Shown here piece after piece: positions 1-64,000 of a stretch of DNA of 64,000 bases. The notes below the pieces were generated by a model. That model saw only the letters and a program-made list of their open reading frames with translations. It had not been told where the DNA came from and ran no database searches. A program made the translations under genes and the position numbers. The stretch is taken from the NCBI GenBank assembly GCA_965235115.1, contig OZ249436.1, forward strand, positions 30,320,001 through 30,384,000. Direction: 5' to 3'. The first letter of the stretch is position 1. The number at the start of each line of letters is the position of its first letter. This DNA is from Laetmonice hystrix (taxonomy: Eukaryota).

Positions 1-1050
1 GTACAACAATTACACGACTTTCCCCGACCAGTCTCAGGACTTGTTTTGCGACTAGAGCTGATAGCACGACCAGTCGCATCGTCATGCGAGACAAGTCGTG
101 CGACGGGCCCTTACCACTCGCACGTAAAGCCTAGGTCCCACTAGGACCTGCGATTCCCTGCGATTAGTTCAGTCGTGCGACTAGGGCTAGTCGTGGGTAG
201 TCGTCCATATTTCTTGCGATTTGAATGTACCGGTCACATTGTAAGACCAGTCAGGAGACCTAGAAGACCTTACCCCGCTGATTAGTCTTGACCAGTGGCA
301 GAAACAACGCAGGACAACTCACAGGTAGTCATACGAGTTGTCCTCCAGTTGCACGACTTGTCTTCCTTCTTCCCCCGCCTGGTCGTCCACCCAGGTCTGG
401 TCGCACGACAGGTCGTGCCAGTGGTCGGAGACAGTTGTGCGATTGTCCTGCGACAAAAGTTTCCTACGTACATGTCACCCATGACAATGAACCAGAGATT
501 TGTGCCCAAACCATCGCACGACCATCGCAGGGCAACTGATGACTAGGTTGCGACAGGATGCGACAGGATGCGACAGGATGCGACTACTTCAGTCGCAGGC
601 AGGTTGTTGCACATGATCAACAACCTCCCTGCGATGGATTTTGGTCGTGCGACTATGGAGGACTACCCACGACCACCCAGGCCTTGTGGCAGAACCTTGT
701 CGTACAAAAGGACTGGTCGCGGGTAATCGCAGGTTCTAGTGGGACTGGGGATTTACGACAGTTATCTGCGACGAATCGTTGGGTCGGAAGAAATCTAGCA
801 GCGCTAGATTTGTCACGATAAATTGTGACAGACAAATCGTCTCAGACAAATTGTCGTAACGTGTGTCACCGCCCCCCCCCCCCTCCCACATGCAGTCGTT
901 ATTCGTATGTTCCTCGTCCAATCAGACCGGTCTGTTTGGATCATGTGACTGGTCGGTATAATCGTCGTAACGTCTATCACCCCCTTCCCCGTCGTCGTAG
1001 CCGACAAATAATATTATTGTCGGCGACAAAAAAATCGTAACGTGTAGGCC
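1..1050. mobile_element. Right-hand part of a non-autonomous DNA transposon, PIF/Harbinger-like (left end outside window)
   Basis: About 1 kb saturated with short GTCG(T/C)/(A/G)CGAC motifs on both strands, ending abruptly at ...AAAAATCGTAACGTGTAGGCC (1050). A GGCC..CAC-type terminus with dense subterminal motifs resembles Harbinger-type non-autonomous elements. The partner TIR is not visible, so the superfamily is inferred. Confidence 0.5.
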
Positions 1051-1494
1051 TATCATGTGCTTCATTGTATGATGTGGTATATCTCTGCAATGAAGGTAGT
1101 CACGGCATGACGGCCGCCGGTCGGGACGTGTGCCCGCCTTCCCGTCATGAGTCAGTGACTGCAAAATGTATAAATAATATTGGCAGCGACCGGTTCAGGG
1201 CTCCACTTAAGATTTTTCCCCCTCACTAATGAAGAGACTCTGAGACAAACTATATGTATCTTCGTGTCTACTGTTATAACCTTAGGCATCAAGTTAGACG
1301 TTTTTTATTGGTTTTCGTACAGGCTTCTATGGATATATCTTAGTTATACATTTTAATGTATCATATATTGTCTGAAATTCTTTCAGAATAGAACACATTG
1401 GATAAGGAGACATAGGCCTACGTACATTTATAAACTGTAAAAGATCAAGCCCATGAAGACACCTGACTCCCCCTCTTTTAAACTCTCTTTTTCT

Positions 1495-1997
1495 CATTTA
1501 TGTGGCCTTTTAAGTAGGGCAACCCTCAATTGTAATACCTCAAATGCAATGGTCCAATAATCCTGCAAAGTCTCCATTCTGCTATCGTTATTATGTCAAG
1601 GGGTTTAATCCAATGAGGTCCACATGCCAGTGACGGATCCAGGGGGTTGGGGGTTATACCTCCCTGGCAACCATGCATTTTTTTCTTTAGAATTTTCTGA
1701 ATTGACCATGCTGAGCCCCCCCCCTAGAATATTCTTCACCTAACCCCCTCCCTTACCAAAATCCTGGATCCGCCCCTACATGCGACTGTGGACATGTAGT
1801 AAAGACAGAACGCGAGTTGTTCAAGATTTGTACCATTTCTCTCTAATTTGTGTGGCCTTTGGGGCAGTAACACACAAAATGCAATGGTCTCTGTCGCTGA
1901 GTCCTATAATTCTGCAAATTCTTCATTCTGCCATCGTTCTATATTATATAAGTGTGAAGGATTTTAATCCAATGAGGCAGACATGCGACTATGGACG
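1495..1997. repeat. Diverged local tandem duplication (~150-200 bp); copy 1 is interrupted by a MITE
   Basis: TGTGGCCTTT..AAATGCAATGGTC..CTGCAAA..CATTCTGC(T/C)ATCGTT..TTTAATCCAATGAGG..ACATGCGACT(G/A)TGGAC occurs at ~1500-1627 plus 1779-1793, and again uninterrupted at ~1850-1997. Confidence 0.75.
1628..1778. mobile_element. MITE of CAG..CTG family with 5-bp TSD (hAT5-like)
   Basis: Imperfect TIR CAGTGACGGATCC / GGATCCGCCCCTA. CATGC flanks both sides (1623-1627, 1779-1783). The paralogous empty site at ~1982 has a single CATGC. Confidence 0.75.
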
Positions 1998-3760: not shown

Positions 3761-4568
3761 GCGGTGTCTGGTATAATAGCTGGCCCTCAGCGTATAGAGC
3801 TGCGGATCCTTTACGACTCATGACGTCGGGTGACCTCCCAAAGGTGAGAGTCTATTTCATCTCCAGGTATGGAGGATATTTTAGTTGTCCTCACAATACT
3901 AAAACGACGTATATTATTGTGGTTTATAGGCATCAAGGTATTATATCGTGGTTTTAAAGCTTGTGAGGTTTAGTGGTTTGTATTATAAAAGCTCATAATA
4001 GAGTTTATACTCAAGGAAAGTGATCAAAAGGATATACAAAATTCTGTTAACCTCTATCCTAAACACACAGGACTATATGCAACAAGTCAGTCGCGACATT
4101 TGATTCATATAAGATATACAGTCTTCTCTTTTGTGAAAAGATGCATATAGAGGGCGGACGCTCAATTCATGTTATTTTCCTTTAACAAACATCACCTGGT
4201 AACCCAAAAAGAAAATCACAAAACCGTGGCAAAAACAAATCTTTTGATGTCAAGTCTTTCTTCCATATGCTATCAACTGTATTTAATACGGAATTCTTAA
4301 TAGGCTGCATTGCATATACATGCAGGCATGTGCAGGCGTGTATACATACTCTATCCAAATAGGTGTATAGCAAATATAAGGTGATTTTATTCGTGAACTT
4401 GCATCCACATCTAATTGTATATTATTTGTATAGGCTATATGTGTGGCGGACTGTATACCAAATGTACTGCATGTATACACCATAAGAGTGAACCTATAGG
4501 GCCTATAATGACAGGCATGCTTGTCATACTCCCCATGCAGTGTTGAACAACCGGCTTCTTAATCTGGA

Positions 4569-6044: not shown

Positions 6045-6789
6045 AGGGACAGTGTACCTTCAGCGCTAGTCTGAGTATGACAAGTGTCACAAATCACGCC
6101 GAGTGAAGGGACAGTGTACCTTCAGCGCTAGTCTGAGTATGACAAGTGTCACAAATCACGCCGAGTGAAGGGACAGTGTACCTTCAGCACTAGTCTGAGT
6201 ATGACAAGTGTCACAAATCACGCCGAGTGAAGGGACAGTGTACCTTCAGCACTAGTCTGAGTATGACAAGTGTCACAAATCACGCCGAGTGAAGGGACAG
6301 TGTACCTTCAGCGCTAGTCTGAGTATGACAAGTGTCACAAATCACGCCGAGTGAAGGGACAGTGTACCTTCAGCACTAGTCTGAGTATGACAAGTGTCAC
6401 AAATCACGCCGAGTGAAGGGACAGTGTACCTTCAGCACTAGTCTGAGTATGACAAGTGTCACAAATCACGCCGAGTGAAGGGACAGTGTACCTTCAGCGC
6501 TAGTCTGAGTATGACAAGTGTCACAAATCACGCCAAGTGAAGGGACAGTGTACCTTCAGCGCTAGTCTGAGTATGACAAGTGTCACAAATCACGCCGAGT
6601 GAAGGGACAGTGTACCTTCAGCACTAGTCTGAGTAGGACAAGTGTCACAAATCACGCCGAGTGAAGGGACAGTGTATACCTTCAGCGCTAGTCTGAGTAT
6701 GACAAGTGTCACAAATCACGCCGAGTGAAGGGACAGTTTAGGCCTACCTTCAGCACTAGTATTATGACAAGTGTCACAAATCACGCCGA
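6045..6789. repeat. 62-bp minisatellite, 12 copies
   Basis: Unit AGGGACAGTGTACCTTCAGC(G/A)CTAGTCTGAGTATGACAAGTGTCACAAATCACGCCGAGTGA starting at 6045, 6107 ... 6665, 6729. Near-identical; the last two copies carry insertions at the TA. Confidence 0.98.
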
Positions 6790-6899
6790 GGTGTACTAGA
6801 GTGCCAACTTCGCACATGCATATAACGTTGGGAGTTGGGTGTTTTCTTTTTTTTTGGGGGGGGGGGGGGGCGTTACAAGTCCGTCGTATATGCGGTACA

Positions 6900-14391: not shown

Positions 14392-15216
14392 GTAGTCCGT
14401 ATATTAAACCCCTCCCAAACATGCAAAAGTTTAATTCCGTTGAGCATCGTGTGGAAGGAAATTATACGGGATGAGACATGTTTGTGATTAATCTCAGGGC
14501 AGGGTGTGATATTATATGATCAGATGATAGATACACGCATTGTTCTGTGTCAGGGCTACTGAAGAATGGCCCAGCGTGTCCTATCGTCAGCAGGCCAGCC
14601 CGCCCCAACACCTCGCCTACCACTGCCCGTGTTTTGACCTGACCTAGTGCCCTCCACACTTTCTGTGCGCACCTTGTCCGAGTTACAACCCTGAAGGTCT
14701 CAATAGGACATTCTTCTTTTCTTTAGTTCGTGTTTGACATAATATCACGAAAAGTGTCACAACAACATAGCCACGGCAGAATTGACGAACAGGTGCACCA
14801 GACAGCTATCGCCCCCTACCATCCGTACGGGGAACCAAGACCTCATGGCGTGTCGGTATGTCAGGTCAGCGATGGCGACGGGAAGATGGCAGTGGCGCCA
14901 CCTATGGCCAGTTACTCCACATCCGTGATATGTAACTGGCTATAGTAGGGCCTACAAGTCTGAATCTCAAAACGCGTATAGGTCTAATCATAGGTGGGAT
15001 CTACAGGATAAGTTCAGTTATAGACAGGTGTATATATAGGTTGTAGGTCATTATACTGATACTGACGAGTAAAAATGTTTCGCCGTCCTTGCGTGGAATA
15101 ACCATTAGAAAATACTGTTCCAACTCCGATGTAAGGTCTGTCATTATAAATATATGGTCGGTCTGTCATTGATGTGCATCATTTTCTATATTTCGGAATC
15201 ACACCCCATTAGTCTT

Positions 15217-23161: not shown

Positions 23162-26044
23162 TATGTCTTGTATACGGTCCTCGTTTACGGCGATGGTGTG
23201 ATCGTTGGCCCTCGGTTTCAGGAACAACCATCGAGAGTGCAGCACGCGATTGAAATCTAGTTCACAGAAATTGTGTTTCAACATGATTAACTGAGGCATG
23301 CCCAACTTACTTTATACAGCAGTCGCTAAAGGAATTTAGCCTGCACCATGCAAGGCATGCAAATTACCGATGGCAGGTCATGTCCAAAAGTACATATTCA
23401 TGTACAATGCTTAAAGCAAATAGTTGTGAAGCATCGCGTCATAATGTCTGGCGTGCAGAACATGCTAGCGTTATTTGCAATTAAATGTAATGGTGCGAGA
23501 AAATCTAACATGCAAGGTTTCTTACACGATGCGCCCAAGGTTTCTATACCCGTTATGTCATAATAGCGTGCGGAGTGAGTAAATCTGTATAATTTGAAGT
23601 GTGGGTCTGTATAGTCACCCCCAGGTGATTGCTATGCATGCGAAGAGGTTATATAAAATAGTTAAAGAGATATACAGGGATATATATACCTACTTCAATC
23701 ATGCATATATAGTACTAAACAGTCACATAATAATAGTGCATTATGCACGTAAGAAGAGTGCATGGATTTTACAAGTCTACAAAGTTTTTCAAACCCAAAG
23801 TTGTAATGACGCCGTTCTCTGGAACAGCACATGCAACATTTCGGTATATTTTGATTAGATTCAGAGGGAGGCAGATTAGTACTGTCAGTCATTATGAATT
23901 TACATGGCAGGAGCCATCAATCTCAAGCATATCTGTTGTCCGTCAGATCGTATTTTATGCCAACATTTCATTGCCTGGATCAGACTCATGGCAAAGCCGT
24001 ATTCAGCACATCCTCATCACCAATGGTGAGCAGATCTTAATGTACATGACAGTGCAATAGTTCTTGTGCATATTCACCATCATTTTCTGAATAAGGATTA
24101 CTACCTACATACATATATATCTATACCCACGTAGGCCTTATGGTTCATTACTTACAAGTCAAAACCATGAAGGTTGCATATGTGCCAATATGATATATAT
24201 TATACAGCCCCTTTATTTGCGAAGCTACAGATTATACCACTCTCATTTGTACTATATTCAACCTCGTAAGTTAATAATTAATCAAAGTGAAAGGCACAGC
24301 CGTACTGAAGACACGAACTTATTAACACCTAAAAACGTACTTGGTGGCGCTGCGAGCGCTGTGAATCCTGTTAGGTGATGACGCAATGGTTACACGCACG
24401 CTGAGCTTGTCGAGTGCTCGCTGTATGCATGTGGTCCCTGCCCGTTACCGTGTGCACTCGCAGAGCTTCTCTCACGGTCGATATTCCATGCCATTAGAAT
24501 TCAATCTATGCCAAGTCTAGGGCCAAGGTATGACTAAGCCATCGTATTGAATTTTCAATGATCTCAACTCGCTTATATTGAATGTCAAGAGGTCCTGATT
24601 GCAATTTTAATTTTAGACCAAGGTTAGTCATTTCAGACTGGAGGTTATATACTGATGAACCAGATGCCCTTGATTTTTATTTTTATTTTTTTTTTTTGGT
24701 AACGTAGTTTTTGCAAAATAAAATAAGATTATTTATGTCTCACTTTTTCAGGGACAAGAAATTTCGCCCAACATTGTGTCGTATTTTAACTGAACGAAGT
24801 ACGTGAGCGCGAGCATGCAGGAACAGAAAGACATGAGATTCTATACTTGGTATGTATGTTCATAATACCTAATGCAATAGATTCCTTTTTCTACTATAAT
24901 ATTATGGTGTATAAATTCGCCTAAGAATGATAACAAACACATGTCCTTAAACAATTAAGGCGATCAATAACGCATGATAAAGGATCTAATAACGTAGTTA
25001 GTACGTTCTAGATATATGTGCCAGTCACTATAATCTGAGACGATGACCATTTGTGTTCAAATGAATTAACAAGGTTTTTACCCACCTGCCCCTTCCTCCC
25101 TTGAGGAAAACCAACTCTGTGGCAGATTACACCAGATTATAATATCAGTTATAGAAAATCAAGTTCACAGACATCCATATCCCTCGTAGGGGGGGGGGGG
25201 GTGAAGACCCTCTGGCCAAGGGTGCCCCTAATATTTTCAAGATTCAAAATTAAGTCGAGTTGCCATTTTTTTATTGTTCTTCTTGTAGTTGTGTACTGCC
25301 CAGATGCCCCCTTGAATTCGAATTCGCCCCACTCTTTGGAAATCATGGGGGCGCCTATGGTGACATCTGTTTGAATGTTATATCACTTAGTCGTACACCA
25401 CATTCTTTGAAAGGGGCTATATAAAAAATCAACCCCTATTTAGAATCGAAATTAGGCCTACTATAGTACACACTGAATATATAGGCCTATAATGCAATGT
25501 TTCCTTCTACTTTTTTTTGCCCCATCCGAGTGCAACGTCCTTCGCCGTCCACAACTGCTCATGCTTGGTGGCTGGCTTGCCGGATGGTGTGACGCAGCGG
25601 AAAAGAGTCCAACGCCAAGTCCTGCTGCGCATTAATATCAGTAAGGTGCGTGACGATGGTTAGCGGTTGGTGATGCTTCGATCGTCGGCCGGCTGACCTA
25701 TCCGGCTGTCTCCGGAGATGACCGAGGGGGCCTGGTCAGTCAGCCTGCCCAGCAGCAGCCTGTCGATCCGATCAGGACAGACGTGCCACAGGACAGGTGC
25801 CACGGGCGTCCACTCACACTGCCGACTGTATATATACGCCTATATCAATACTACATGTGAACCGGCCGACCAGTAAGGAATGCTCCTGATTCGACTCACT
25901 GGGCACGCCGTGGGTCCCCAGTGAAAGTGGCCGCGGAATCCTCTTATACTACAAGCAGCAGATATCCTATATAGCAGTGTATATAATGACCCGCCTTCCA
26001 CGCTGTAAGAGATACACAATTTTTTGTGAAGGAATGTTATTTCT

Positions 26045-26092: not shown

Positions 26093-27688
26093 GGCAGTCA
26101 CGATGGCATCTAACACAGCCTCCAAACATGTGTGCGGTGGTCTTCAGAAACATGTGTTGTGTGTATAATCTTCTAGATTTAGAATGCGACTAATCCATTC
26201 AATGCTTGATCATGTCATCGAACCTGTAATAGTGGCGTTCTAGAGTAGACTGGTTCGCGATTGTGATGAGGATACATATGTTATGGATATACTAACACTA
26301 TTAACAGGGTTACAAGTCGGCTCGACCAGAAGGTAGGTATAGAGTTTACGTATATATACGTGTGTCACAGTGTGTATGTATAGCGGCATGAACATGATAA
26401 CGGTTATATAATATATGTGTAATCATATACCAGGCGCAATGGCTAATAGCGTAGATCTATAGCTGCTTTTGAGTTTGCATCATAGACGCCATGCATTATA
26501 TTTACTTGCTTTCTTTTCTCTTTAACTTTTGTTGAGCTATATTCTATATTATGCTATCGTATCACTTATACCTTTCCATCATACCAGCTATCTGCATGTG
26601 ATCTACTCTTATACATTTCAAACCTACATATACTTGCAGTATGCAAAGATCTACATAATAAACATACACAAATAGTATGTGTATGTGTAGTAAACATATT
26701 TCAAGCATCTACTATAAAACTTTACAATTATTATCTGCTATATAGGGCCTACCGGTATAGTGCCCCCGGGTATTATACATTTCCAATAGAAAGATATCAA
26801 TAATTATTAACAGATACTGTACATGCATGTTATAGAATGATATTGCATGTATAATGGCAACATATGGTTATCACGTATTATTGTTATGTGGCAACTGAAG
26901 CGGCAAAATTCTATGGGCTAGTCTGAAATGCAGAAAATGTTGAGTTAGACTGAATCGAAACCATCACTATTATTTTTTTCATGACTATAACTAAATAGAC
27001 ATAAATTGGCCTATATATTGTTAAATTATTTTCTGCCTTCTGAAGACATAGACTCGTGTTGTATCCTTTTGGCAAAAGCTGTTCTGAAACTTCTATTAGT
27101 ATATATTAAAAGGGATTATTTTTTAAAATTTCGAAATGATGATCTTTGGCTTTCATTCCTTCGCTTTATCCATAAGCACCTGTCCTATCTTATTTAATGG
27201 TAAATTAATAGCTGTTTTCAGTATAGTTTCTATTTAAATAAGCAGACCACACGATGCTGGCCAGCTTCCGTCCTTGCCGTAAAAAAACATGCCTAAATTA
27301 GATATTCTAATTAAGCCTCAGTGCTAACTTTTTCCTACTAAGCTCCATAGCTTTATTGTACGGTCCAGAAGAGTCTATACAAAGATTTGTTGGGCGTGTT
27401 CTAAGATGTCAAGGACAACTGGGTCAACTCTGGCTTAATGATAAACCAATTGGAAATATTTAATTTCTAGTACACCGACTCAAAATAGACCGGGCTTTGC
27501 GTCATTCAAGAAGAAACAGGGTCGGTTGGTGGATTCTCTTGTCATTGACGTTTGACCAGTCGCCCACTCAAATCTCTTTTATTCGTGCTGTTTCCACATC
27601 ATCAAAACAATATTAACTTGTGCCATTCTTCTGTTCTGACCTTACGACGTCTCTGACCTTATCTTAGAAGAAGTCGAATCGTCGGTGG

Positions 27689-27766: not shown

Positions 27767-30421
27767 ACCCGGCCGTGGAATAAACAGGTTGAACTTCGAT
27801 GATCTGCGTATACGAAGAGAACCGTTGGTCGGTTGGTTGATTGGTTTGATCCGACTGCTACTATACCAAACCCCCCTGGGGCTATATCCTGCAGCCCGTG
27901 CTCGTATACAAACGCACCTCCATCTTTACCCAGCAAGACAAAGGGGAAAGCGAACATGATCGGGCGGATGAGGGCAGGGAGGCCGGGGTGAGGGGCGGTT
28001 GGTCCGGGCAGGGGTCGCGTCCCCCGAGCCGGTCGAACTGTACACGCCGCCGCCCCTTACCCTGCCTCTTCCCATACAAAATGCCCATCCGCCGTCATGA
28101 TTTGCGCCGACTCCGATTTTTTCTTTGGTTATCTAGCTGTATGAGTGCATACGATACGTCATAAAGCTAGGTTACCAAAGCTAAAACAGGAGTCTGAACC
28201 AGCCGCAGGGACTCGACGCCAACTGCAGGTATTGAGCATGTCTTTCTTTATCTTCATGTATACGCATGCATAGGCCTACAGATGAACGGTGTGTGTATAG
28301 TTGGCCAACAAGGCGTGGCTATATACCCTGCACTTTATATGCTTGCACCTCAGTTGCATGTCCTAGATGTCTTCACGACAGCACAGTCCCTGTTTATGTT
28401 ATAATAGTTGGAATGTCTTGTCTGGATTGATTTTTGTGTCTGTAATTTTTATGTTGAAAATCTATTTGTATTCAACTGTGATCTGATTATAACTGGTATA
28501 TATAAGAAACAGATATAAAAAGGTAAAAACTGTAAAAAATAATTTTTTATTCACAATAAAAATGATTTAGAGAGCTCAAAAAATGCTTCGGTGACTCTAA
28601 TAACTTAATGTTTCATATGATTCCTGCGAAATATAAACCACCCTATTGTTTGATCGAGGCCGGTAAACGTTTTTAGACGAAATAGGTGCAGTGCAGAATT
28701 TGTGCATGCTAGGATTTTGTAAAATGCCACATTTCATGGCAACCTGACAGATACATGGCCCTCAAATGTGACAGAAAGCATTAGAGTTAAATGTTATTAT
28801 ATGCATGTTCATTATAGTTGGCTAGCGTGGGTTAATAAGGCCTCGTTTCCTGTCATTTGACGAAAAACTGACAAAAAGAATAGTAATCGGCCATGTGGGT
28901 TTTACTTGGAACTACATTCTGTCCGATATTTCCGATATATCATGCACTACATAGCGGCAGGAAAATATATTTTGATCGGTTCCATTAAAGTTCTTGATAA
29001 CCATGGTTGCGCGAGCGTTATATTTTGATTGGAAGTCAGACTGTATGCACGGCGCTGCCTGCAGAAAGGCGCTGCTCACAGAAACGTTTCGCCCGCTGTC
29101 CGGTGGGATGTCCTCAAGTCGTGGCGGGGTACGGTCCGGCCGTGCCGACGGTGTGCCGGGCCGGGGATGGGGTCCGGTCGGCCGGGTCTCCCCCGTCCCC
29201 CGGGCTGAGCCTGCCCGCCCGCACGCCCGCACGCATAAACATACCTGCCGACCGACCGCCCCTCTCTAGGATTCCCACCATAACTCCAGGGGCAATCGAT
29301 TCCAACGTGTAGGTATATAGGGCTGTATGAATCCCTCACACCACATCACACATCTTTATCTGACCCAGGAAGGTGAGACGTGAAATCAGACTGAATTCAA
29401 CTTTTACAGGCCTGAAACGAAAGGAAGAGAGCGAAATAATGAAGACAGGGAAATTAACCTTTCTTGCATGGCTGTAATTGAGAACTGTTGAAAGTTGCTC
29501 TTGTTATTGTATTGAGGATCTACCCATGATGTTATAGACTTAGTATTGAAGACCTTTGCATCCTCTTATTAGGAGCAAAAATATATGGTTATTATGTGAA
29601 ATAATTTAGATCAATCATTTTTACAATTTGGCATCGTGCGGATGACAGCTATACTGATATTAAACAGCAAACCCAGATACAATGTTAATATGCGGCAAAA
29701 TGTTGCGACTAATAATCAGAAGATGATAATTATGGCAGTCGTATATAGCGCGTTCTGAAAAATAAGCGTGGATCTTGATTTCATTTATTAATAATTATAA
29801 AAAGGATCATGTCAAAGTTGACAATATAACTTATAATGCAGTCATTATTATATTATTATTGAGCAGCGTGTTGGTATATATAGAAACAGGAATTGCGGAG
29901 GGTATAATGAAAATGCTTGCCTGTGGTGCTGACCATAGAGGTGATAGGTATATTCAACTTCCATGCACTTGGAATTTGTACTTAAGTATTCACTTGTCAA
30001 GAGTTTAAACCCTTCTGAACTTATTAATTCTACTCCGAGATCGATGCATGAACTCCATTCATTTAAATTGAACCGGGGCGGCTTTACTAATTGTCGCATG
30101 TATACACTTACGAGGCGTTTAATCGAGCTTTTAATCGCTTTGATGAGAGTATAATGAAGAAAATGATAAGATCATAAAAATAATGGAAAGAACAATGAGA
30201 TGTTTATCGTTGTAAAGGTTGAGCATGGCGAATCATCATACTTTGGAAGGTCATCACGACGTACGCCCACGTATAGGTTCATGCACGCACGCACAGTGTG
30301 TGATTCAGCCTATCGATGGTCCTGAGATGGTGGCATGCAGCACATGTGACCATCCTATATGTCGGTATCTATGTCACGATGTAAAAGGAACCTTTCAGAC
30401 ATGCCTTAATATAATTATGAT

Positions 30422-35698: not shown

Positions 35699-37188
35699 CA
35701 GGGGCGCCGCTGCCGGGGGGGACGGGGGGACATGTCCCCCCCCACTTTTGCTGGCGATCTAAAAAGGTCAAAGGCTCCTTGAAGTTGAAGCTAGGCCTAA
35801 TAAATAGATAGATCTACAGGTCTTCTTATACTCCCTAGGCCTAGCTTTTTAAGGTTAATTGCCCATGGGAGGCAAATTAAAGATAGATTTTCATCATTTT
35901 TAATCTTGGCCTTCGCAGGCCTAAGCCTATGTCATGTGTTTAGGAGATAGGTCTATGCTTTGCTGTTCTATAATTAATATGGGCCTAACCGCGGCCTAGA
36001 TCCCCTGCAGCTTCCCTGTGTACCTTAGTCCTACCACACTGGCGGGTCCAGGGTAGAGGGTCACATAGGGTCTGGACCCCCTAAAATATATATATTTCAT
36101 GGCGCGCCTCCTGCCGTTCATGGCGCCTCACGGCATTGTAGGGCTACATAAGACTTTTGACATCATTGGTCTTTAAATAGCTTTGTGCTCCAAAATGCAT
36201 CAGATTTCACCAAATTACACCTTGAATTTGAAAAATTTCCGGGGGGCATGCCCCCAGACCCCCTGGCAAGGCTTTGTGCCTTCGGCGCTCGTACAGTCAC
36301 ACCGGTTGCGTCCCTAAAAACGTTGGCCCCCCTATTTGAAAAAGCTGGATCTGCCCCTGTACCGTCTCTTGCTTAGCTCATAGACCTGAATATTCAGGTC
36401 AATCTTAAGCTCTAGGAAATCTAGGCCATGCTTAAATTATTGTCTGACAGCGTAGGCCTGCGGCCGTCAACATTTTTCACCCCCATGTTGGGCCTTCCTA
36501 TTTGATTTTGAAGAAAAATACCTCATGCGTGAATGTATTCAAATAATGAGTGAGGTTTACCAATTTTTACTAGGCCTAGTGTGGTAGAATAGAAAGTGGC
36601 AAGTAGGATGGGGACGGTCTCTATTTTATTTGGTAAAAGTGTGTTTTAGGCCTAATCGTCAACTTTTTTGGCTTCTGATAAATATTGCTTGATACTGTTT
36701 TTTGTGATGTCAACGGCCAGGTGGGACCTAAAAAATTTTTTTAGCCTCGCTACGCTCGGCATGATTTCATTGTAACTGTAGGTACTAATAGTATAATACA
36801 TCTTCATACAAAAAAAAGAAGATTTAAGGGAAGGCAAGCCCCCTGATTAATCCCTCACTGATTAATACATTAATCTTGAGCAAAAGGTCGGCACCGAAAG
36901 CTCTTTAGTTTGATGCTGAGAAGCCGGGAAATAGCACCGATGGCCTTTTATATTCCCAAAGTCGGAGCACCCCCCCCCCTTTCGGCGCGTAGCACCTTCT
37001 GACACCCCCCCCCCCCCCCCCCCCCCCCGCAAAGAAAATCCTGGGTCCGCCCCTTGGGGGGGGGGGTGAATACACTGTTATTTTGCAATTCTTATGGTAG
37101 GCGCTACATAAATCTCGGGGGGAAAGGTCAAACACACCAAGATTGTCTCCCCCCCCCCCCCACTTTGAAATAGGCAGCGGCGCCCCTG
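35699..37188. mobile_element. 1.49-kb non-autonomous CAG..CTG element with perfect 5-bp TSD, nested in another MITE end
   Basis: Perfect 16-bp TIR CAGGGGCGCCGCTGCC / GGCAGCGGCGCCCCTG; TSD CCCTG (35694-98, 37189-93). Removing it restores ...GCGCCCCCCCCCCTGGATCCGCC. Confidence 0.88.
36037..36359. mobile_element. MITE nested within 35699-37188
   Basis: CACTGGCGGGTCCAG / CTGGATCTGCCCCTG; flanks TACCA / TACCG. Internal 36165-36262 is the inverted homologue of ~54935-55040. Confidence 0.7.
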
Positions 37189-38178: not shown

Positions 38179-39249
38179 AAACTACTGACGGAATACAGGT
38201 CTGTATAGGCATAGGCCTACAACACATGAATTTCATTTTGAACCAAGACAAAGGGACGGCCACTCAAGGTCGGGTATCAACCCGGGAGGTGTGAGGGGGG
38301 GGGGGTGCTGTATGGCCGGTGCGGGTCCTCTCGCGGTCATCGCGGCAGTGCTGCATGCATGGCGAAACGGGCCGCATTATCAGATGGGCGCTGTTAGAGG
38401 GATGCTTCGTGTCCGCAAACAATTTGGGAGGAGTAGGTACAACAATAGGTTAACAATGATACCCTGCCCACTCTTTTAGTGACACCTGTGGTGAGGCAGT
38501 GACTGCTCAGGTGTGTAAAGTACAAATTACACGGCTAGTGGAGAGTGAACCACAAACCCACGCTGGCCACAAGCTGGTCGCTGACCGTGCCGACCACAAG
38601 CCAACCCCACCACCATCGCCATCCGTTATAACTCTCACACCCCAACCCCCAACCCCTCTCCGACACACACCGCCAACCACCCACTCAGACCTTTAATTAG
38701 GGCTGTCTCTAACACTGTCCCAACGATTAAAGTTAATAACTAATTCAAAATGTCTCAAACAGTTATCACTTCCGCGTGTTTGTGGAAGAGAATGCATTAC
38801 GTCGTTACCAAGATTTTGAGAATTGATTTAAGAGTCAAATAATATTGTTATTCAACGGTTACTTTCCTGATCTATCGCCAGTTGCAATCGAACCTGTTTG
38901 TAATGATAAAAATACATCTCACGTTTTCTATAGTAGATTTCATATTGCTGAAATAAAAAAGGACTTATGAGGCATAATATTTCATATCCGTGTATTTGGT
39001 TGCTGTTAAAAATTTGGGCAATATTATGCAGTGTCTTCGAAAGCAATCTTACAAAAGTATTTAATGGTTTTATTGTAACTGGTTAGGTAAACCTGTAAGA
39101 AAATATGAGCGACCCCTTAAAGACATACATGAAGTACACCAAATGTATATCTCCCCGACCCTCTCCTCCCAGGTCTCTGTGGTATACAGTCATGATGTTC
39201 ACGATATGTTGGTATATACATATTTAGTCTGTCAATGGCAGCAAACAAA

Positions 39250-40392: not shown

Positions 40393-42329
40393 TTTTAGCC
40401 CCTCACACTGAAGGGGCCGGGAATTTCAATTTACCCTCCGTATACGTACGTCCCTCCGTGTACGTATAGACAGCGATTTCTCAGAAGTGTATCGGTCAGA
40501 TTGTACACAATGATCAGGGACGATCTAAAGATGATGCGCATCAAATAAACTTTTTATGTCATCTTGGATGTAGACACATTTCGAGTAATAACTCCGAGAA
40601 AACGATCCCGATTTCTTTCAAATTTGATACGGGGAAGAGACATATATGAGGGGTAACATGCCATTGTATTCTCAGTTCATAGCAAAATTGGCGACATTGG
40701 GGGCCATATTGTTTTTTGACCCCGAAAATTGTTTTGGCTCATATCTCGAAAATGGTGCCATATAACGCAATAGTTATTATTGTTGACAGAGCGGAAGTCA
40801 TAAATGGTGACCCAGCAAAATAAAATTCAGGATGAAATATTTCATGATTTATTACATAATAAATTTTGGGGAGCAAAGGGAGTACTAATCTCGTAAATGA
40901 ACGAGTATGTGGTAAATGTGTACACACATACTGTATGTACCTGTGTGTAGAAAAGGGTTGGAATTAATTTTTATATAGTTAAAAGTACTATGTAAACTCC
41001 CATCCTGAATTTTGCTAAGTCACCCTTTATATAAACTTTCGTTTGGGGCCATTTTCCATGACATTCCGTGATCTTGAAAGGTCAGTCAAGGTCATGCATA
41101 TTTTCTAAGGTTCATATCTCCGAACTTGTGTAAGATAAGCAAAGTTACTTTTTAACATGGACAGGAAGTTATATATGAAGTTTCAGTTGGCACTCAAGGT
41201 CATTCAAGGTCACGTATTTTTCCAATGGCCTGTATGCATGGACAAAACAGTTGAAAATAATGCCATAATTATTATTATTTTTATGATTATTATTATTGAC
41301 AAATAAGAAGTCATGTGTGAACTTTTGTCTGGTGCCCTGTTCCATGACCTTGTGTGAACTATAATGGTCAAACAAAGTAATGCATAGGTCAATCAAGGTC
41401 AGGCTCCTTTCATTTCTGGAAAATACTTCAAGATCACCTATACTATGAATGACCGATGAAGACATATATCAATGATGTTCATACATGGACTCTATGTAAA
41501 AAAGACAAAGTGCACATAAAACTGTTATAGACCCACAGATAATTAGCCCCTACCTAGTACTTTGCAGCAATTTAAGAACTGTCTCGGGTAGCTCATTTCA
41601 ACAAATTCAGGGTTACCATTCTTAAATTTCAATAAAGGCTTCTAACATTATAAAAAAGTGTATGCTCATAAAAATAGCCCAGTTCAAAAGTTTTTATCAT
41701 GCAAGATTTTATGATATCAGTAAGAAAACACCATGACCACCCGGACCTTTAGTCAAGCACATGGCCCATCTCATGGCCGCCGACGTCACAGCAGAGTCAG
41801 ACTTCGCAGTGATAGCAGCAGACATTCTGCTGCTTGTGCAAAAACTGGACATCTGCTATGATTCAAACTTATAGAGCAGCTTTACAATCATCTCAGGTAA
41901 AGGGCCAGGTAGTTTGAGCTCAATCACACGTATCATTATTGAGTAAACATCAAATTTACAAGAGACTTTTTGTGACAAGTATTGACAGCTGTGACCCGGA
42001 TGATAAACATTATGAGGTCAACATCCTGGCAGTTAACATTATGCCAAACAAGAAGCTCTTGCAAGGTCAAAATGTCCCAGCATTAGAAAAAGAAGTAATA
42101 CAGTGGAAAAAAGATTCCCTTTAAAAAGACATAAATATTAGGTTCAAGATCACCTACTATGAATGATCGATGAAGACATAGGCCTATATGAAGTTTCTTT
42201 GTGAATCACTTATCAATGATGTTCACACATAGACGCTATCTCAAAAAGACAAAGTGCGCATATAGTTATAAACCCACAGATAATTAGTCCCTACCTAGTT
42301 GGGGGTTGTGACTCCGACGGGGTCTTGTT
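40393..42329 (+). mobile_element. Non-autonomous Helentron (HINE/DINE-like), second family
   Basis: 5' TTTTAGCCCCT..AGGGGC hairpin followed by CCCTCCGTATACGTACGTCCCTCCGT microsatellite-like tract, CAAGGTCA motifs, 3' GGGGGTT, stem-loop GACTCC-GAC-GGGGTC and terminal CTTGTT. Internal ~135-bp duplication 41427-41560 / 42143-42299. Confidence 0.7.
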
Positions 42330-42931: not shown

Positions 42932-43100
42932 GGAACACCTGAGCGTAATTTTTAATACATGTTCCGACGCTTCCATAGGACCTCATATTTAACGTCACAT
43001 AACCCCGTGACGTGTAAAATCAAATCAGTCGCGTATGGAACGCGTGTTCCATATACGGACACAGTATGCCCCCCCCCCCCCCCCAATGGCACTGGCAGAT

Positions 43101-43567: not shown

Positions 43568-44079
43568 CAGATAGAATGCGCATAATCTATATTATAATAA
43601 CAACTCTTTAACTGTCCTACTCTCTTTCGTAGAAGGCATAGGCAAAGCCTTCCAAATGTACATTGTATAATATTATGTTGAGTAGGCCTAAGGCATCTAT
43701 AACTAGGCTTATGTTTTGTAACTTTACATACAAAACACAACACATACACATGTAAATTATCAGCAATAATCGATTACGTATCTTCGTGAGTGATCCGAGC
43801 TTGATGGTCGGTGCACAAAATAAGGTTTCGAGACGGCAGCTATAGCCGAGCTCTCTCCATCAGCCCGTCTGACCGGACACTGACCCTCCCTGGTATCGTC
43901 GCGGGGGGTCGGAGTGCCGGCTGGGTGGGTCCGGAGGGCGTGCACCGATCTGTTATATTATAGGTTGATCAGAATCTCTAATATTTAGAATTTACATGCA
44001 GATTTGGGTAATAATACAATTTCATTATGTAAATCACAATGTGGGGCCTTCATTTTAAAAAGCTACCGTTTGTCCTGGT

Positions 44080-44775: not shown

Positions 44776-45317
44776 TATATAATGTACGAGTGACTGACCA
44801 ATCAAAACGTTGTTTACCCGTTTCCTAGCGACAGACGGGTGACCACCTCGTCTAAGTTATATTCTTATATATGTATGGGGTATATAATACAAATATATCA
44901 ATACCAGCACCGGTACAATACAATATAATTAATTTTGTCTAAAAAATTTTAAAGGTTCTATCAGGGGGGTTATCACGGGGGGGGGGTTATCACGAATGGG
45001 TACAGGTTATCTCGTATTTTCAAGCCAGCTTGCATGCCAAGACTAATTGATGCAATGGGTTTTTTCCCGATTGTTGATAGTTTGGTATTTTCTGCAAGAT
45101 ATAGGCCTATATGTCATGTTGATAAACATTCCTTATACAAACCCATTGTGAGACTCTGCTTGCCACAGATCACAGAGCTTCCCACCTTTATCTATATGCC
45201 TTCCTATAGTTATTATGAGCAGGGTTGTCTGTGACTTGCTGCAGTGGTATATTACAGGAATATTTTATCAGGGGGGCAGGGGGGCATTGCCCCCCCCCCT
45301 TGAATTTTGACAACGCC

Positions 45318-47865: not shown

Positions 47866-48510
47866 GTGTACAGTGTGAGTAAACCAGCACACGACGGTTG
47901 TGTACAGTGTGAGTAAACCAGCACACGACGGTTGTGTAGTAACCAGCACACGACGGTTGTGTAGTAAACCAGCACACGACGGTTGTGTATAACCAGCACA
48001 CGACGGTTGTGTACAGTGTGAGTAAACCAGCACACGACGGTTGTGTAGTAACCAGCACACGACGGTTGTGTAGTAAACCAGCACACGACGGTTGTGTAGT
48101 AACCAGCACACGACGGTTGTGTAGTAAACCAGCACACGACGGTTGTGTACAGTGTGAGTAAACCAGCACACGACGGTTGTGTACTACAGTGTGAGTAAAC
48201 CAGCACACGACGGTTGTGTAGTAAACCAGCACACGACGGTTGTGTATACAGTGTGAGTAAACCAGCACACGACGGTTGTGTACAGTGTGAGTAAACCAGC
48301 ACACGACGGTTGTGTACAGTGTGAGTAAACCAGCACACGACGGTTGTGTAGTAAACCAGCACACGACGGTTGTGTACAGTGTGAGTAAACCAGCACACGA
48401 CGGTTGTGTACAGTGTGAGTAAACCAGCACACGACGGTTGTGTACAGTGTGAGTAAACCAGCACGCGACGGTTGTGTACAGTGTGAGTAAACCAGCACAC
48501 GACGGTTGTG
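47866..48510. repeat. Minisatellite, 21 copies of a 22-bp core with variable linkers (units ~24-37 bp)
   Basis: Core AACCAGCACACGACGGTTGTGT; linkers ACAGTGTGAGTA, AGTA, AGT, AT, ACTACAGTGTGAGTA, ATACAGTGTGAGTA. Confidence 0.97.
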
Positions 48511-52759: not shown

Positions 52760-52849
52760 CTAGCAGTCAAACTGGCCGCCTTTGGATGGTCAGATTGGGC
52801 ATGGCGAGCAGGAGGCTCTTATAAATCTGTTACAATGTATCAGACATGT

Positions 52850-54780: not shown

Positions 54781-54920
54781 AGAGCTTCACATGTGAAGGA
54801 AATAACGCACTATTTCTTTGAGCCCCACCATGGACAGAACGAAGGAGACGGTGTTCACAGCCGTGTAGAGAGGTCAATGGAGCGTGTTCCAGAAATAATG
54901 GTCCCATCGCAGCTGCCTTC
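54781..54920 (+). pseudogene. Transposase fragment, Sola-like
   Basis: RASHVKEITHYFFEPHHGQNEGDGVHSRVERSMERVPEIMVPSQL resembles the ITH.F.E.GH.QNEGDS.HS.IE motif around the last catalytic residue of Sola-type transposases as I recall it; lies inside TIRs with a 4-bp TSD. Confidence 0.7.
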
Positions 54921-55452: not shown

Positions 55453-55695
55453 CAGGGGCAGATCGGGGGGGGCGTGGGCGCGGACGCCCCCTTTTCAAAG
55501 CTTTAAACTAAAAGTAGGCCTACATGTCCCTGTTGCTTGCTTTGGATAAAATATGCACCAAATTGCAGGAAAATGCAAAATTGCAAAAATTTTTGGGGAC
55601 ATGCCCCAGACCCCCAAATGCATACCTGCATTGATTGCTAGCTCACCACTCAGTGCCCCCCCCCCTTTCCCCAAAGAATCCTGGATCCGCCGCTG
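55453..55695. mobile_element. CAG..CTG MITE nested in the Sola-like element
   Basis: CAGGGGCAGATC / GATCCGCCGCTG; flanks GTTTA / TTTTA (4/5). Confidence 0.72.
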
Positions 55696-59009: not shown

Positions 59010-59557
59010 GACTTTATCATGCATTTATTTTTGCTTGATTCTATCCATCAGAAATCTATAAATTTAATACAGTTCTTGTTTATGCTATAAACCTACTGTA
59101 TCGCTCAAAACACTTCTTTATTGTGCTGAACGGATGATTCGATTAATAGTTTTTTCTTTAAACTGTACTAAGATCATTAAAGAGGAAGGAAGGGTCATGT
59201 GCGTTTCATAAATAACAGGATGATGTAGATAGAGATAGAGGATATAGGAGAGAGAGAGAAAGAGAGAGAGAGAGAGTAGAGGAGATAGAGAGAGAGAGGA
59301 GAGAAAGACAGAAAGACAGAAAGAGACAGCGACCGAGGCAGAGACTGACTTTATCATGCGTTTTTTGCTTGATTCTTCATTAGAACTCTTGATTTAATAC
59401 AGCTCTTTGTTTATACTATAACCCTAACGACATCGTTCAAAAAACTTTTTTATCGGATGATTTGATTAATATTTTAAAAACTGTAGGCCTACTAAGATCA
59501 TTATAGAGCAGAGAAGTAGGGCCTACCAGGTGCGTTTGATAAATAACAGGAGGTGGA
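59010..59557. repeat. Diverged ~340-bp-period tandem duplication
   Basis: GACTTTATCATGC..TTTTTGCTTGATTCT..ATTTAATACAG..CGGATGATT(C/T)GATTAATA..AAACTGTA..CTAAGATCATTA..TAAATAACAGGA at 59010-59225 and 59348-59555, each preceded by a GA-rich tract. Confidence 0.85.
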
Positions 59558-59940: not shown

Positions 59941-60299
59941 AGACTTAGGCCTACATCTGCAATCCTCATCAAGACTTAGGCCTACATCTGCAATCCTCAT
60001 CAAGACTTAGGCCTACATCTGCAATCCTCACCAAGACTTACAGGTCTACATCTGCAATCCTCAAGACTTAGGGCTACATCTGCAATCCTCATCAAGACTT
60101 AGGCCTACATCTGCAATCATCAAGACTTACAGGCCTACATCTGCAATCCTCATCAAGACTTATGGCCTACATCTGCAATCCTCATCAAGACTTATGGCCT
60201 ACATCTGCAATCCTCATCAAGACTTATGGCCTACATCTGCAATCCTCATCAAGACTTAGGCCTACATCTGCAATCCTCATCAAGACTTAGGCCTACATC
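59941..60299. repeat. ~31-bp minisatellite, ~11.5 copies
   Basis: Unit AGACTTAGGCCTACATCTGCAATCCTCATCA with small indel variants. Confidence 0.96.
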
Positions 60300-60305
60300 C
60301 CAATC

Positions 60306-60402
60306 CCCCTCCTCCTCCTCCTCCTCCTCCTCCTCCTCCTCCTCCTCCTCCTCCTCTCCCCCTTCCTCCTCCTCCTCCTCCTCCACCTCCTCCTCCTCCT
60401 CC
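60306..60402. repeat. (CCT)n microsatellite
   Basis: Direct reading. Confidence 0.95.
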
Positions 60403-61324
60403 TTCTGAATCATCCCGAGTGGGTGTTCAATATCGTTCCATAGAGATATACGCGGTAGCTTCCATGGAAGATATAAATGTGGGTGTCCAGAAAGAAATCG
60501 CCGTGTATGTTGGCGACATTGAATTCGAAGGACTCTAGTCCATAAAACGCCCTAAATCAGAAGCTGGGATTTATTGTATGGTATACTAAACGAACAGTTC
60601 CTGTAATACAGTATACTTTACTCGTTTGAAGGTACAGGCGATATCCTAGAAAATCCGTGATCCATGTTTACAAAGATTAGGCCTATAGTCCAAACATTAC
60701 ATCAGTGGGTGGGCGTGATTAATCTCACGTTTTGCACCAAGGGAGTTCAGTTAATATTGTTTTATACCAGCAGGTCAATTATGTAAGTTCGGACGAAAAC
60801 CGCAGCAGCAGAGATCTTCATTATACTTAAAGGGAATAGAAAAGTTCAAACTATCAATATATAAGGGTGTTCAGCATGAACAAGCTTGTTCTTACCTACA
60901 ATTCTGTGATTATCTTATCTCCTCGTGGCGAATATTTGGGAAAGTTGTCCTCGCCACATTGAATTTGACCTCGCCAATGCGAGCGTGGCGAAAGGCCTGC
61001 GCGAGCCTATGATTGTTTTTACCTATAGTTCCCTGTAATGTACTTAGCAACGGTGGCGGTAAAACTGAGACTGGAACAAATGTGCCCATTATGTTATAGG
61101 CTCCCAGGGCCTAAAGTAACGAGTTTTTACGCAACTATGTTCTCCTTTAAAGAGACATTGTCTATTTGTTTACTACTAGGCCTATTTGCTTGTTATCTGA
61201 TGTGACCATTTTCAAGATTATACCGAAACGGTGGAGATATTGAGAATTTTTTGGGTACACTCTACATTTGTACATATGTACTTAGTTTCCTTGGAGATGT
61301 TCAAATAGGCTTGGATGCGCAAAC

Positions 61325-61680
61325 GGTCGGTGGAACGTAGCAAACGTGATGGTCGGCGGAACGTAGCAAACGTGATGGTCGGTGGAACGTAGCAAACGTG
61401 ATGGTCGGCGGAACGTAGCAAACGTGATGGTCGGCGGAACGTAGCAAACGTGATGGTCGGCGGAACGTAGCAAACGTGATGGTCGGCGGAACGTAGCAAA
61501 CGTGATGGTCGGCGGAATGTAGCAAACGTGATGGTCGGCGGAACGTAGCCAACGTGATGGTCGGTGGAACGTAGCAAACGTGATGGTCGGCGGAACGTAG
61601 CAAACGTGATGGTCGGTGGAACGTAGCAAACGTGATGGTCGGCGGAACGTAGCAAACGTGATGGTCGGCGGAATGTAGCA
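61325..61680. repeat. 26-bp minisatellite, ~14 copies
   Basis: Unit GGTCGG(C/T)GGAACGTAGCAAACGTGAT. Confidence 0.97.
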
Positions 61681-64000
61681 GCCCATACAGACCGCATGAA
61701 TTTGAAAAGGCTGCATGTCCATGCAGACCTCTTCGATCGTATATCGACCATGTGCATGTCCATCGTCAATAGCTTCAAGTCAGAGGACATGAATCACAAC
61801 GCACATTCCACTCCGGAAGTTGATTCTGTACGTTTTAAATAAAAGTTTAAGGGCAATCCTCGGTTACGTAATCGTTTACTGTACATCGCTGCACTAAAAT
61901 ATATGCAGCATCTGTTACGTAATCCTAACAGAGGGTAGCAGCATAAGACCGGCTTGCAGTGAATAAACATAGGTGCCATGGAACCTGCGCAGTACCGACC
62001 TATAATCATGCAGAGACCCTGCCCTGTATGACGTAATCTGTCACGTGACCTCAGATAACCAATCGTCCAAGTCCAGGCCACAATCCGACATTACTGCGAC
62101 CTCAACGTCCCCGGCATGAGTCCATAATAAGGAATCGAATCCACATGTCAATAAATACCATCACTGCATGCATGCAAAAGGCACTCTTGTTGTATCTTAG
62201 ATAATTAAAATGTTTCATAACGAAAAGACATTGGTCCTGGTGAAGGAGCAGACTGTAAGCAGAGTCATTATGTTGGATAGGAGAGTCAAGGATCGCAGCG
62301 GTTGTATCTAATGATAATTCCAGAATCGGTCTTTGCTGATGATTGGCCTCTTTTATCCGATCATGTATGCCACGGCGCCACCTAAAACAGCCTGTATACT
62401 CAGAAAAACACATCATGGAAAACGCTTACGAAGTGAAAGCTCATTCGCTATAGGCAGCGCGCAGCTATGAATGAACATGTAGGCCTACATGTGGCTGCTC
62501 ACCATTTTTCTGTGACCTTAGCTACATTGAAGTAATGACCGGTTGGCCTTCAATTAACGTGTTGAAAAGGAGAGTTAAACATAGTCCATGCAGTACTTGT
62601 GAAATCCTTGTGCAGGAAATGCGCGTACGGATCTTCAAGTTTTATTGATTTGAAATAAAGGCATAAGCCCATAAATATATTACGTATAGGCCTAGTCGTA
62701 GATCTATTACATACATTAGTTATACAGGTCTGCATTATAGGTGCTAGGCCTATATAATAACCACTATATTAGATCGGCACCGTAAGTTGGGACCTTGGGA
62801 GGGCATCCAGTTCAACCTCCACTTGAATCTTCAGAAAGTGATATATATTGTTCTAGTTGATAATAGTCTGAAGAGTCAGTCTTAATATTAATGTAAACCT
62901 GAATGTCGTGAAAATAAATCCTTATTTTATAGTTATAAACTGTATTATTTTAGAGCACTGCTGCTCAAAAGCCTGTCCTGGCCGGGTGTCTTGTGCTTGT
63001 AAGTTGTAGAGCTATCAACACGTTCGTTGTCATCGCCTGGGCCAGAGACTGGCCGGCGACAACGTCCTCCTTATCTGCATTGGCTACAATTTTATAGCCT
63101 GGGTTCAATCTGTTTGTGCTTTCATTGTCACTTGTGACATCATAGTATAGTTAACTACGTATTTTGATACATAATATTACAATGTTTCACTGGCAAAAAG
63201 ACAATGCGTGCCTCGTTAAGTCAACTTGTGGCTGTGACGTCACAGACATGACGTGCGGTGCAGTCTTGAATAGAAGGCTAGATCTAACGTAGACTGCACT
63301 CTTTTGCTGTCTAGCTCTCGTTTTATCGAAAGATGCATTAAAATACTACATAAGCAGAAACTTAAAAGGTCAGTAGATATTCTCAGAATATTATAGCATT
63401 ATAATTTACCTTTTTAAACATCACCCTAGGCCCCTGATCCGACAGAGCTTAGTTTGGAACCTGGCTTTCTGTTGTGATATTTAACGTCATTATCAAGTTT
63501 TGGGCACTTTTGAAATTTTCAAACAAAGCTCACTATATTCATAACTATAAGGAGTCTCGCTAAAAGGATGACATCTATGGAGACCTTACGATGTGGGGAA
63601 TAATTCTGGGTACTATTTTGTATAGGTCGTCGCGACAGATTTTGCGTGGCAGCCTGCCAAACACGGAAAGGTCACACGTTTTTGGAAGTTTTCATAAAAA
63701 GTTTCTATGGTTTACATAGCTCGAAAGAAATGAAAATTATGTGTAATCTGTCTAATTTCTATACTAGCTCATAGCCTGGAATCTCTACTTTCATTTGCCA
63801 CCATTCCTGTCCCGATTGACCAACTATGCACACCGCGAGCATACTTTTAATCAACTGAGGTATCAAAAACTAAGTTTTTGGGTCCCAATTTGAGGTGCCG
63901 CACTGTAGTCACTTTTCACCAGGGCCATATTACACTGGTCCGCAAGGGCGTCCGATTAGGACAATGTAGCCTATCAATACGGTTAGTCGTAGGCCTGGTA

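Follow-up and report, generated by a model that had tools for sequence, protein, structure and literature searches.

Throughout a 64-kb window of the genome of Laetmonice hystrix (C1:30320001-30384000; the genome comprises 627 Mb in 35 contigs, denoted by C-numbers), the palindromic word TAGGCCTA is found far more often than expected, and the same is true of the genome at large. With a probability of roughly 84%, most of these words are inherited excision scars of pogo-type transposons with GG ends, i.e., each would consist of TA, two bases from each end of the element, and TA (a 2+2 scar), left when the element was excised. A first-pass annotation of the window had explained such insertions as footprints left genome-wide on excision of a TA-targeting cut-and-paste transposon, and this is still the best reading, with the IS630-Tc1-mariner-pogo group as the source; the GGC..GCC ends that it assigned to the element were not supported. 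The mechanism is a known one; its scale is unusual, and candidate source families can now be tied to the scar.

Abundance of the word and gains at TA sites

The window has 28 exact copies of TAGGCCTA, six of them inside a 31-bp array (59941-60306) and 22 outside, which is the number originally counted against an expectation of about one; the ten coordinates quoted at that time are all correct. In 100 dinucleotide shuffles of the window the mean was 0.78 and the maximum 4, and order-2 and order-3 Markov models gave 0.9-1.2. The related words reported together with it are also present; TAGGGCCTA occurs 4 times versus 0.25 expected, but the excess of TAGGCTA (7) and TAGCCTA (4) is weak, with approx. 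2.6 expected for each. Genome-wide, the count against background that had been suggested gave 168,757 TAGGCCTA versus 3,469 for the control, the reversed pattern. Part of this number is satellite DNA: one satellite of approx. 850 bp accounts for most of the first 100 places listed, and since it carries the word in each unit, the raw genome counts are inflated. Two satellites of approx. 850-870 bp lie near the start of C1 (19565-90405 and 375003-512210), one of them with TAGGCCTA in every unit.

In a 641-kb sample of the genome, partly chosen around transposons and with tandem repeats masked for context counts, 184 distinct contexts of TAGGCCTA were found versus 7.1 expected. Approx. 0.4% of all TA sites have the word. 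Palindromic words of the form TA-xx-x'x'-TA top the enrichment ranking of the sample, i.e., TAGGCCTA (26-fold), TAGATCTA (11-fold), TAACGTTA (7-fold), TACCGGTA (3.8-fold) and TACATGTA (3.7-fold). TAGATCTA, TAACGTTA and TACCGGTA behave like the 2+2 scars of families with GA, AC and CC ends, respectively; dispersed families with such ends were absent from the looser end-pattern listing described below, beyond one pair of rows starting TAGA. TACTACTA is also enriched (5.5-fold in the sample), and could be the scar of an asymmetric CT/GT-ended DD82E-like family or plain slippage.

The comparisons that reveal how these words arise rest on paralogous sites, not on alleles of one chromosomal locus; an overlay of three contig sets of one sample on 25400-45200 of the window gave tables filled with repeats. 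Three pairs of repeat copies had been put forward as cases of insertion at a TA. In the 62-bp array, 9 of the 11 units displayed from 6105 have a plain TA, one has TATA (6675) and one has TAGGCCTA, which is borne out as an insertion; this last unit also has an adjoining G to T change. Likewise, the copy at 59484 shows a clean gain of six bases relative to that at 59161, and a third copy (locus L003 of the sample) has the plain TA. The comparison of 41461 with 42179 is not clean, given that the 41461 copy lacks 30 contiguous bases; nevertheless, among 100 places listed for this repeat approx. 36 were homologous by eye, 12 of them with a plain TA followed by TG and none with GGCC, and therefore 42179 is a gain (the scar plus one more TA). 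The TA of this dispersed repeat (41425-41490 and 42142-42235 in the window) is a hot spot that reads TATA, TATTA, TACTA or TATGTA in other genomic copies, and copies elsewhere in the genome also show a gain of TACATGTA at or beside it. The smaller gains described initially (TATA at 6675, 30750 and 48245, and TACTA at 48182) are all present.

Within the sample, 2 of the 22 window sites (6739 and 59484) have an empty paralogue that covers both flanks, 4 matched only copies that carry TAGGCCTA or a close variant, and for the other 16 no paralogue was found there. A tabulation of indels between repeat copies, another of the checks proposed at first, was carried out for lengths of 2-14 bases in dispersed repeats: TA was within the duplicated part in 53 of 168, and the outcomes at TA were TATA, TACTA, TAGGCTA, TAGGCCTA, a doubled scar, TAGGCCCTA, TAGATCTA, TACATGTA and TACC(C/G)GGTA, together with plain tandem duplications. 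The sites of the window are listed below (coordinates, strand, description).

1045..1052, no strand: TAGGCCTA, presumed 2+2 scar, exact match, paralogue not found
1413..1420, no strand: TAGGCCTA, presumed scar, exact match, paralogue not found
4497..4505, + strand: TAGGGCCTA, 3+2 scar presumably left by a GGG-ended element; class enriched in the sample (37 versus 5.5)
6045..6790, + strand: 62-bp tandem array, units with plain TA, TATA gain (6675) or TAGGCCTA gain (6739)
6739..6746, no strand: TAGGCCTA, insertion relative to sister units
14946..14954, + strand: TAGGGCCTA, presumed 3+2 scar, exact match
25453..25460, no strand: TAGGCCTA, presumed scar, exact match
25482..25489, no strand: TAGGCCTA, presumed scar, exact match, 29 bases from the 25453 site
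26743..26751, + strand: TAGGGCCTA, presumed 3+2 scar, exact match
28271..28278, no strand: TAGGCCTA, presumed scar, exact match
30750..30753, no strand: TATA gain in one unit of a 21-bp array, 0+0 scar or slippage
35543..35550, no strand: TAGGCCTA within a high-copy repeat; the sole paralogue seen also has GGCCTA, hence possibly inherited together with the repeat
35792..35799, no strand: TAGGCCTA shared with its paralogue, hence no independent event
35836..35843, no strand: TAGGCCTA, the paralogue being a one-base variant
36571..36578, no strand: TAGGCCTA shared with its paralogue, hence no independent event
36647..36654, no strand: TAGGCCTA, presumed scar, exact match
38212..38219, no strand: TAGGCCTA, presumed scar, exact match
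42179..42186, no strand: TAGGCCTA gain at the TA of a dispersed repeat, GGCC absent from other genomic copies
43683..43690, no strand: TAGGCCTA, presumed scar, exact match
45102..45109, no strand: TAGGCCTA, presumed scar, exact match
48182..48186, + strand: unit of an array with a TACTA gain (scar of the 1+0 type)
48245..48248, no strand: TATA gain in an array unit
55515..55522, no strand: TAGGCCTA, presumed scar, exact match
59484..59491, no strand: TAGGCCTA, clean 6-base insertion, plain TA in two other copies
59517..59525, + strand: TAGGGCCTA, presumed 3+2 scar, 33 bases from the 59484 site
59941..60306, + strand: 31-bp tandem array with TAGGCCTA in six units, spread by amplification of the unit, hence no more than one event
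60678..60685, no strand: TAGGCCTA, presumed scar, exact match
61177..61184, no strand: TAGGCCTA, presumed scar, exact match
62480..62487, no strand: TAGGCCTA, presumed scar, exact match
62687..62694, no strand: TAGGCCTA, presumed scar, exact match
62745..62752, no strand: TAGGCCTA, presumed scar, exact match

GG-ended elements as candidate sources

Nine of the 150 listed loci with a DDE_1 domain were inspected, three with long open reading frames (ORFs) and six with short ones, and all three long-ORF families (F1, F2 and F3) begin with GG directly after TA. F1 reads TA-GGGGAAAG…CCTTCCCC-TA, and its six complete copies all have TA on both sides within unrelated flanks. F2, of 4,964 bp, is located in C13 and reads TA-GGTAAC…CTTACC-TA, with TA duplicated relative to its empty site; the left end of F3 is TA-GGGTAAC, the other end and the second copy of this family being damaged. 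According to Pfam, F1 has the domains HTH_psq, HTH_Tnp_Tc5 and DDE_1, and F3 has HTH_psq and DDE_1; only DDE_1 was detected in F2, for which the scanned piece lacked the N-terminus. DDE_1 is above cut-off in the three families, and the D-to-D spacing is 36 in F1, 36 in F2 and 35 in F3. The terminal inverted repeats (TIRs) of F1 and F2 match, imperfectly, over approx. 25 bp only. These features place F1-F3 in the pogo superfamily, with a DNA-binding layout like that of Fot/Fot-like elements, among which, given their shorter TIRs, they are not filed. An intact copy of F1 is contained in the region C20:9327060-9330830. The open frame of F1 differs in length among copies (638-946 aa), and the F1 transposase at C20:9327300-9331300 (L201) has a long in-frame tandem repeat rich in Pro, Val and Ser between the catalytic domain and a C-terminal cysteine motif; this motif, also present in F3, we take to be PHD-like.

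Searches with end patterns extended the set to short derivatives and to further families. An end pattern of the F1 type matched 25 times, in 23 cases after TA; likewise, among 86 matches to a pattern anchored at TA, 79 begin with TAGGGG, and many of these are paired ends approx. 0.5-0.9 kb apart, i.e., short derivatives (control, 2). With a looser pattern, and one satellite set aside, 36 of the 64 listed rows start TAGGG(G/T)A and none TAGGC. The TA-duplicating GG-ended elements that were found end in GGGG, GGGT or GGTA, and none of the TA-flanked ends in the three listings begins with GGC. Source copies are absent from the window, where tblastn detected no remnants of F1 or F3, and the nearest listed ends are at a distance of approx. 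0.3 Mb on the side before the window and 0.5 Mb on the side after it. No miniature inverted-repeat transposable element (MITE) with TA followed by GG came out of de novo TIR scans, which covered the window and the sample.

In C13, F2 is inserted in one unit of a host repeat of approx. 146 bp, and at this homologous repeat site the empty, full and scarred states all exist. In the sample, 55 homologous units were found, 47 of them with the empty site (plain TA) and the other 8 differing by one base, and genome-wide it is plain TA in 6,317 places. When it was searched as TA-NNNN-TA, leaving the four-base core free, 7 matches were obtained and all 7 had GGCC (0.11% of copies). It follows from these numbers that the scar is a rare derived state and that a single TA is ancestral.

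The content of the scars corresponds to the tips of the elements regardless of the flank. In the sample, the observed and expected numbers were 241 and 10.4 for the 2+2 form, 151 and 71 for 2+1, 37 and 5.5 for 3+2, and 8 and 1.4 for 4+2. Whether the ends are GGG(G) or GGC(C) makes no difference to the 2+2, 3+2 and 4+2 words, but it does to the 3+3 word: that of GGG ends, TAGGGCCCTA, was found 1,201 times versus 175 in the control (6.9-fold), and that of GGC ends, TAGGCGCCTA, 276 times versus 172 (1.6-fold). In addition, element insertion sites and scars share a skew toward G and away from T in the base that precedes TA. For the elements the counts are G 10, A 8, T 3 and C 2 (23 ends; P about 0.02), and for the scars the frequencies of G and T are 0.32 and 0.18, versus 0.22 and 0.28 in the background.

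The course of events that we propose starts with what the copies themselves display, the insertion of a GG-ended element at a TA that is duplicated, giving TA-GG…CC-TA. The transposase would then cut approx. two bases inside each end, as the biochemistry of Tc1 suggests, so that the donor flanks would be left with 3' overhangs of two bases that are not complementary; for Tc1, overhangs of this kind have been described (PMC4490562). End joining that retains and fills both overhangs would produce TA-GG-CC-TA, with a net gain of six bases, and if one side kept 1, 3 or 4 bases the product would be TAGGCTA, TAGGGCCTA or TAGGGGCCTA. No annealing through GC, as had been supposed earlier, is needed for a 2+2 scar: CAG-ended elements go with TACATGTA (3.7-fold), and TACAGTA, their three-base word, is not enriched (1.0-fold in the sample), therefore the usual scar keeps two bases per end. 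Several GG-ended families would contribute, probably including extinct ones. Finally, as their pattern shows, the scars are inherited, shun long reading frames, cluster, and are targeted again, and hence they exceed the surviving elements by something like a thousand to one, very roughly.

Several points weigh against this interpretation. Excision itself was unobserved, and the descent of a scar from a donor is deduced from sequence; at most window sites insertion is not proven by a paralogue, and some TAGGCCTA have been copied along with repeats. The 7 scars of the F2 site may represent fewer than 7 events, with two rows from C2 showing the same sequence throughout the pattern, and they may have come from an element other than F2. 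At the F1 copy in C4 the length of one paralogue fits a two-base duplication, but it reads TC, not TA. The matches to TAGGGCCCTA are partly clustered in repeats, and among 60 listed sites with a seven-base core there are 22 TAGGGGGCCTA, with five G, and 10 TAGGCCGCCTA, versus 8 of TAGGGGACCTA, the form predicted from GGGGA ends. Because the first two outnumber the predicted one, slippage in the G-run or a minor contributor with GGCC or GGGGG ends that escaped detection is possible.

Other explanations and other transposon families

According to one alternative, GGC..GCC or GGCC ends leave overhangs of three or four bases that anneal via GC or GGCC to give TAGGCCTA. GGCC-ended families do exist in this genome, i.e., an ISL2EU-type family (family C) and a 389-bp MITE with 947 candidates; TAGGCCGCCTA contributes 10 of the 60 sites just mentioned, and most words of the scar series are the same strings under both end types. 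Nevertheless, family C duplicated AT at the only testable site, and ATAGGCCTAT is present in 22 of 237 scars, as flank frequencies predict. For the MITE (L163-L192, copies 97-99% identical), the duplication is TWA in 29 of 30 copies, and the scar that it would leave, TTAGGCCTTA, was found 3 times versus 1.6. Both were discarded as sources; PIF/Harbinger-type elements are reported to excise precisely (PMC4561436). The search for a TA-flanked GGC..GCC family that the first-pass annotation had called for gave none that duplicates TA in the TIR scans or the end listings, and this, with the low count of TAGGCGCCTA, makes annealing of such ends an improbable origin of the word.

We consider it somewhat less probable still that the word reflects additions by host repair or slippage at breaks beside TA, with no transposon end involved, or a selected protein-binding site. 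The word is palindromic, clusters and shuns long ORFs (see below), and the analogous TACATGTA was taken as a transcription-factor site in Phytophthora (PMC3520976). Against this, the core is constant whatever the flank, with GGCC in all 7 scars of the F2 site, the variant series tracks the G-runs of real element ends, and the gain of six bases with duplication of TA is seen within satellites and copies of transposons, which are unlikely to be under selection for such a site. Hairpin-type excision, as in hAT and CACTA elements, would add palindromic P-nucleotides to give TAGG-CCTA, and it is very unlikely as the origin of the GGCC core; it agrees with the palindromic word, and a TA-duplicating CAC-ended element of 5.3 kb is present, but footprints of the hairpin type copy the flank and not the element (PMC4561436), and no GG stands beside TA in the empty sites. 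It may still hold for the TATA gains. The 5.3-kb element (L099 3819-9090, in C8) has CACTGTAAA ends and a TA duplication, and is nested in an ISL2EU-type copy. Presumably it is CACTA-like.

Family C is 7.2 kb long, has (A)GGCC tips and is found at L105/L106 (C7:29207976-29215193) and L109/L110; 9 of its 11 ends follow ATA, and a genome search for the empty site of the C7 copy returned only that copy. Its DDE_Tnp_4 and YqaJ domains are the layout of ISL2EU elements (PMC4482050, PMC9179366). The non-coding left arm of this family is dense with TA scars that differ among copies, and the C5 copy has a triple run of TAGGCC. Profile matches of the ISL2EU type amount to 151 for DDE_Tnp_4 and 100 for YqaJ, and ends were read from approx. 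20 copy pairs. Many young families of this type were seen in L061-L100. In several of them the outermost 5-6 bases, ahead of a core of TATTCACG/TATCACG, do not match; the duplicated dinucleotide seems to be TA in some families and AT in others, and head-to-tail arrays of some families also occur (C1:26.03-26.11 Mb and C11:22.36 Mb).

Tc1 (CAG ends), DD82E-like elements (CT, GT or CAG ends) and Tigger-like pogo elements were also discarded as the source of the GG scars, given that their ends do not fit. For the Tigger-like elements, CAG ends were found in 2 of the 6 short-ORF loci inspected, and in the other 4 no ends were found. The DD82E-like elements (L144-L153, e.g., C1:10729186-10732578), which we take to be Sailor, are young, 2.3 kb long, with transposases of 490 aa and copies 97-99% identical, and their tips are asymmetric (TA-CTC and TA-GTC).

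Distribution of the presumed scars and comparison with known systems

The scars are not evenly distributed. With arrays unmasked, 43.5% of TAGGCCTA have another within 200 bases, versus 9.9% for random TA, and the word co-occurs with TAGATCTA and TAACGTTA but not with TACATGTA. Two of the six complete F1 copies lie a few bases from an older scar of the G series. Long ORFs, mostly transposase genes, contain 2 of 280 occurrences versus 43.7 expected. The mean divergence of the scars, roughly estimated from one-mismatch neighbours, is approx. 5%, hence long accumulation suffices and neither an extreme burst nor the very active element postulated initially is needed, even though in several source copies the frames are long and open and the TA duplications perfect. 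For every element end found there are, very roughly, a thousand scars (168,757 versus a few hundred, exact patterns undercounting the ends). The +4 form accounts for about 61% of the GG-type excess, and since it is inherited and dominant, repair resembling non-homologous end joining (NHEJ) would operate in the lineage that forms the gametes.

Footprints of the Tc1-mariner-pogo group are well established (PMC7827188, PMC9976928, PMC4561436), and PMC9587614 and PMC3673617 contain background only. The scar described here is similar to that of Tc1 and Tc3 of C. elegans (+4, taCATGta), in which TA is duplicated and two bases per end are kept, with a net gain of six (PMC13148408, PMC4490562, PMC3520976); TACATGTA, the Tc1-like word, is itself enriched in this genome alongside CAG-ended Tc1 and Tigger-like copies. 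In C. elegans, however, the typical +4 footprint of Tc1 is somatic, somatic empty sites depend on NHEJ (PMC13148408), and germline breaks give mainly products of homologous recombination or variable products of polymerase theta (PMC13148408, PMC4490562), whereas here the +4 form is inherited, in the order of 100,000, and corresponds to pogo-type elements with GG ends instead of Tc1 with CAG ends. Sleeping Beauty and Passer, the latter a member of the pogo superfamily with footprints of 0-4 bp, also cut in a staggered manner inside the element, keeping the TA duplication and leaving element bases (PMC7827188, PMC9976928). The scar of Sleeping Beauty amounts to a single three-base overhang (TA-3-TA), in contrast with the dominance of the 2+2 form over the three-base word of CAG ends in our case.

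Fot/Fot-like elements (Gao et al. 2020, PMC7386202) share with F1-F3 the DDE_1 domain, HTH_psq with or without HTH_Tnp_Tc5, the TA duplication and a length of 3-5 kb. They differ in that their spacing is uniformly 35, the value found here in F3 alone, their TIRs are of 40-60 bp in most members, and they were placed outside animals; besides, F1 and F3 end in the cysteine motif. Motif-1 of Phytophthora, TACATGTA, is likewise a hugely abundant TA-xx-x'x'-TA palindrome in non-coding DNA, for which a footprint origin was dismissed on account of its abundance and conservation (PMC3520976), whereas in L. hystrix abundance and footprint origin go together. The top literature matches included no paper on TAGGCCTA, nor any in which inherited footprints make up a dominant word of a genome; GG-ended pogo families may already be contained in supplements such as the element table of PMC7386202, or in Repbase reports.

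Excision of DNA transposons is normally invisible and their activity is usually judged from surviving copies, so that with scar counts the number of past jumps, the choice of targets and the germline repair pathway become directly accessible in an animal without genetics, and the named source families make the mechanism open to test. As regards motif discovery, a very over-represented palindrome can be mutational debris and not a regulatory site. A broader proposal, to which we give slightly less than even odds, is that in the germline of L. hystrix the breaks left by transposons are repaired mainly through blunt-type end joining with both two-base overhangs retained, an outcome limited to the soma in C. 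elegans, and that each TA-targeting family writes its own TA-xx-x'x'-TA word (TAGGCCTA, TAGATCTA, TAACGTTA, TACATGTA or TACCGGTA). The words would then be a fossil record of approx. 100,000 excisions of elements that are now rare or extinct, clustered in non-coding hot spots, and abundant words of this form that have been interpreted as binding sites of transcription factors in the genomes of other organisms may be scars of this kind.

The window has some other features that were recorded. Large inverted arrays of a 31-bp unit, foldback-like, occupy 52845-54782 (forward 52845-53405, reverse 53405-54395 and forward 54408-54782). An inverted pair at 16650-16984 has long arms starting near GGTTAG..TAGGCCT, and it is not a TA-duplicating element because the symmetry runs on beyond TA. 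Many single-base differences between the assembly and contigs from the same sample were seen in 25512-30443, which suggests a heterozygous second haplotype.

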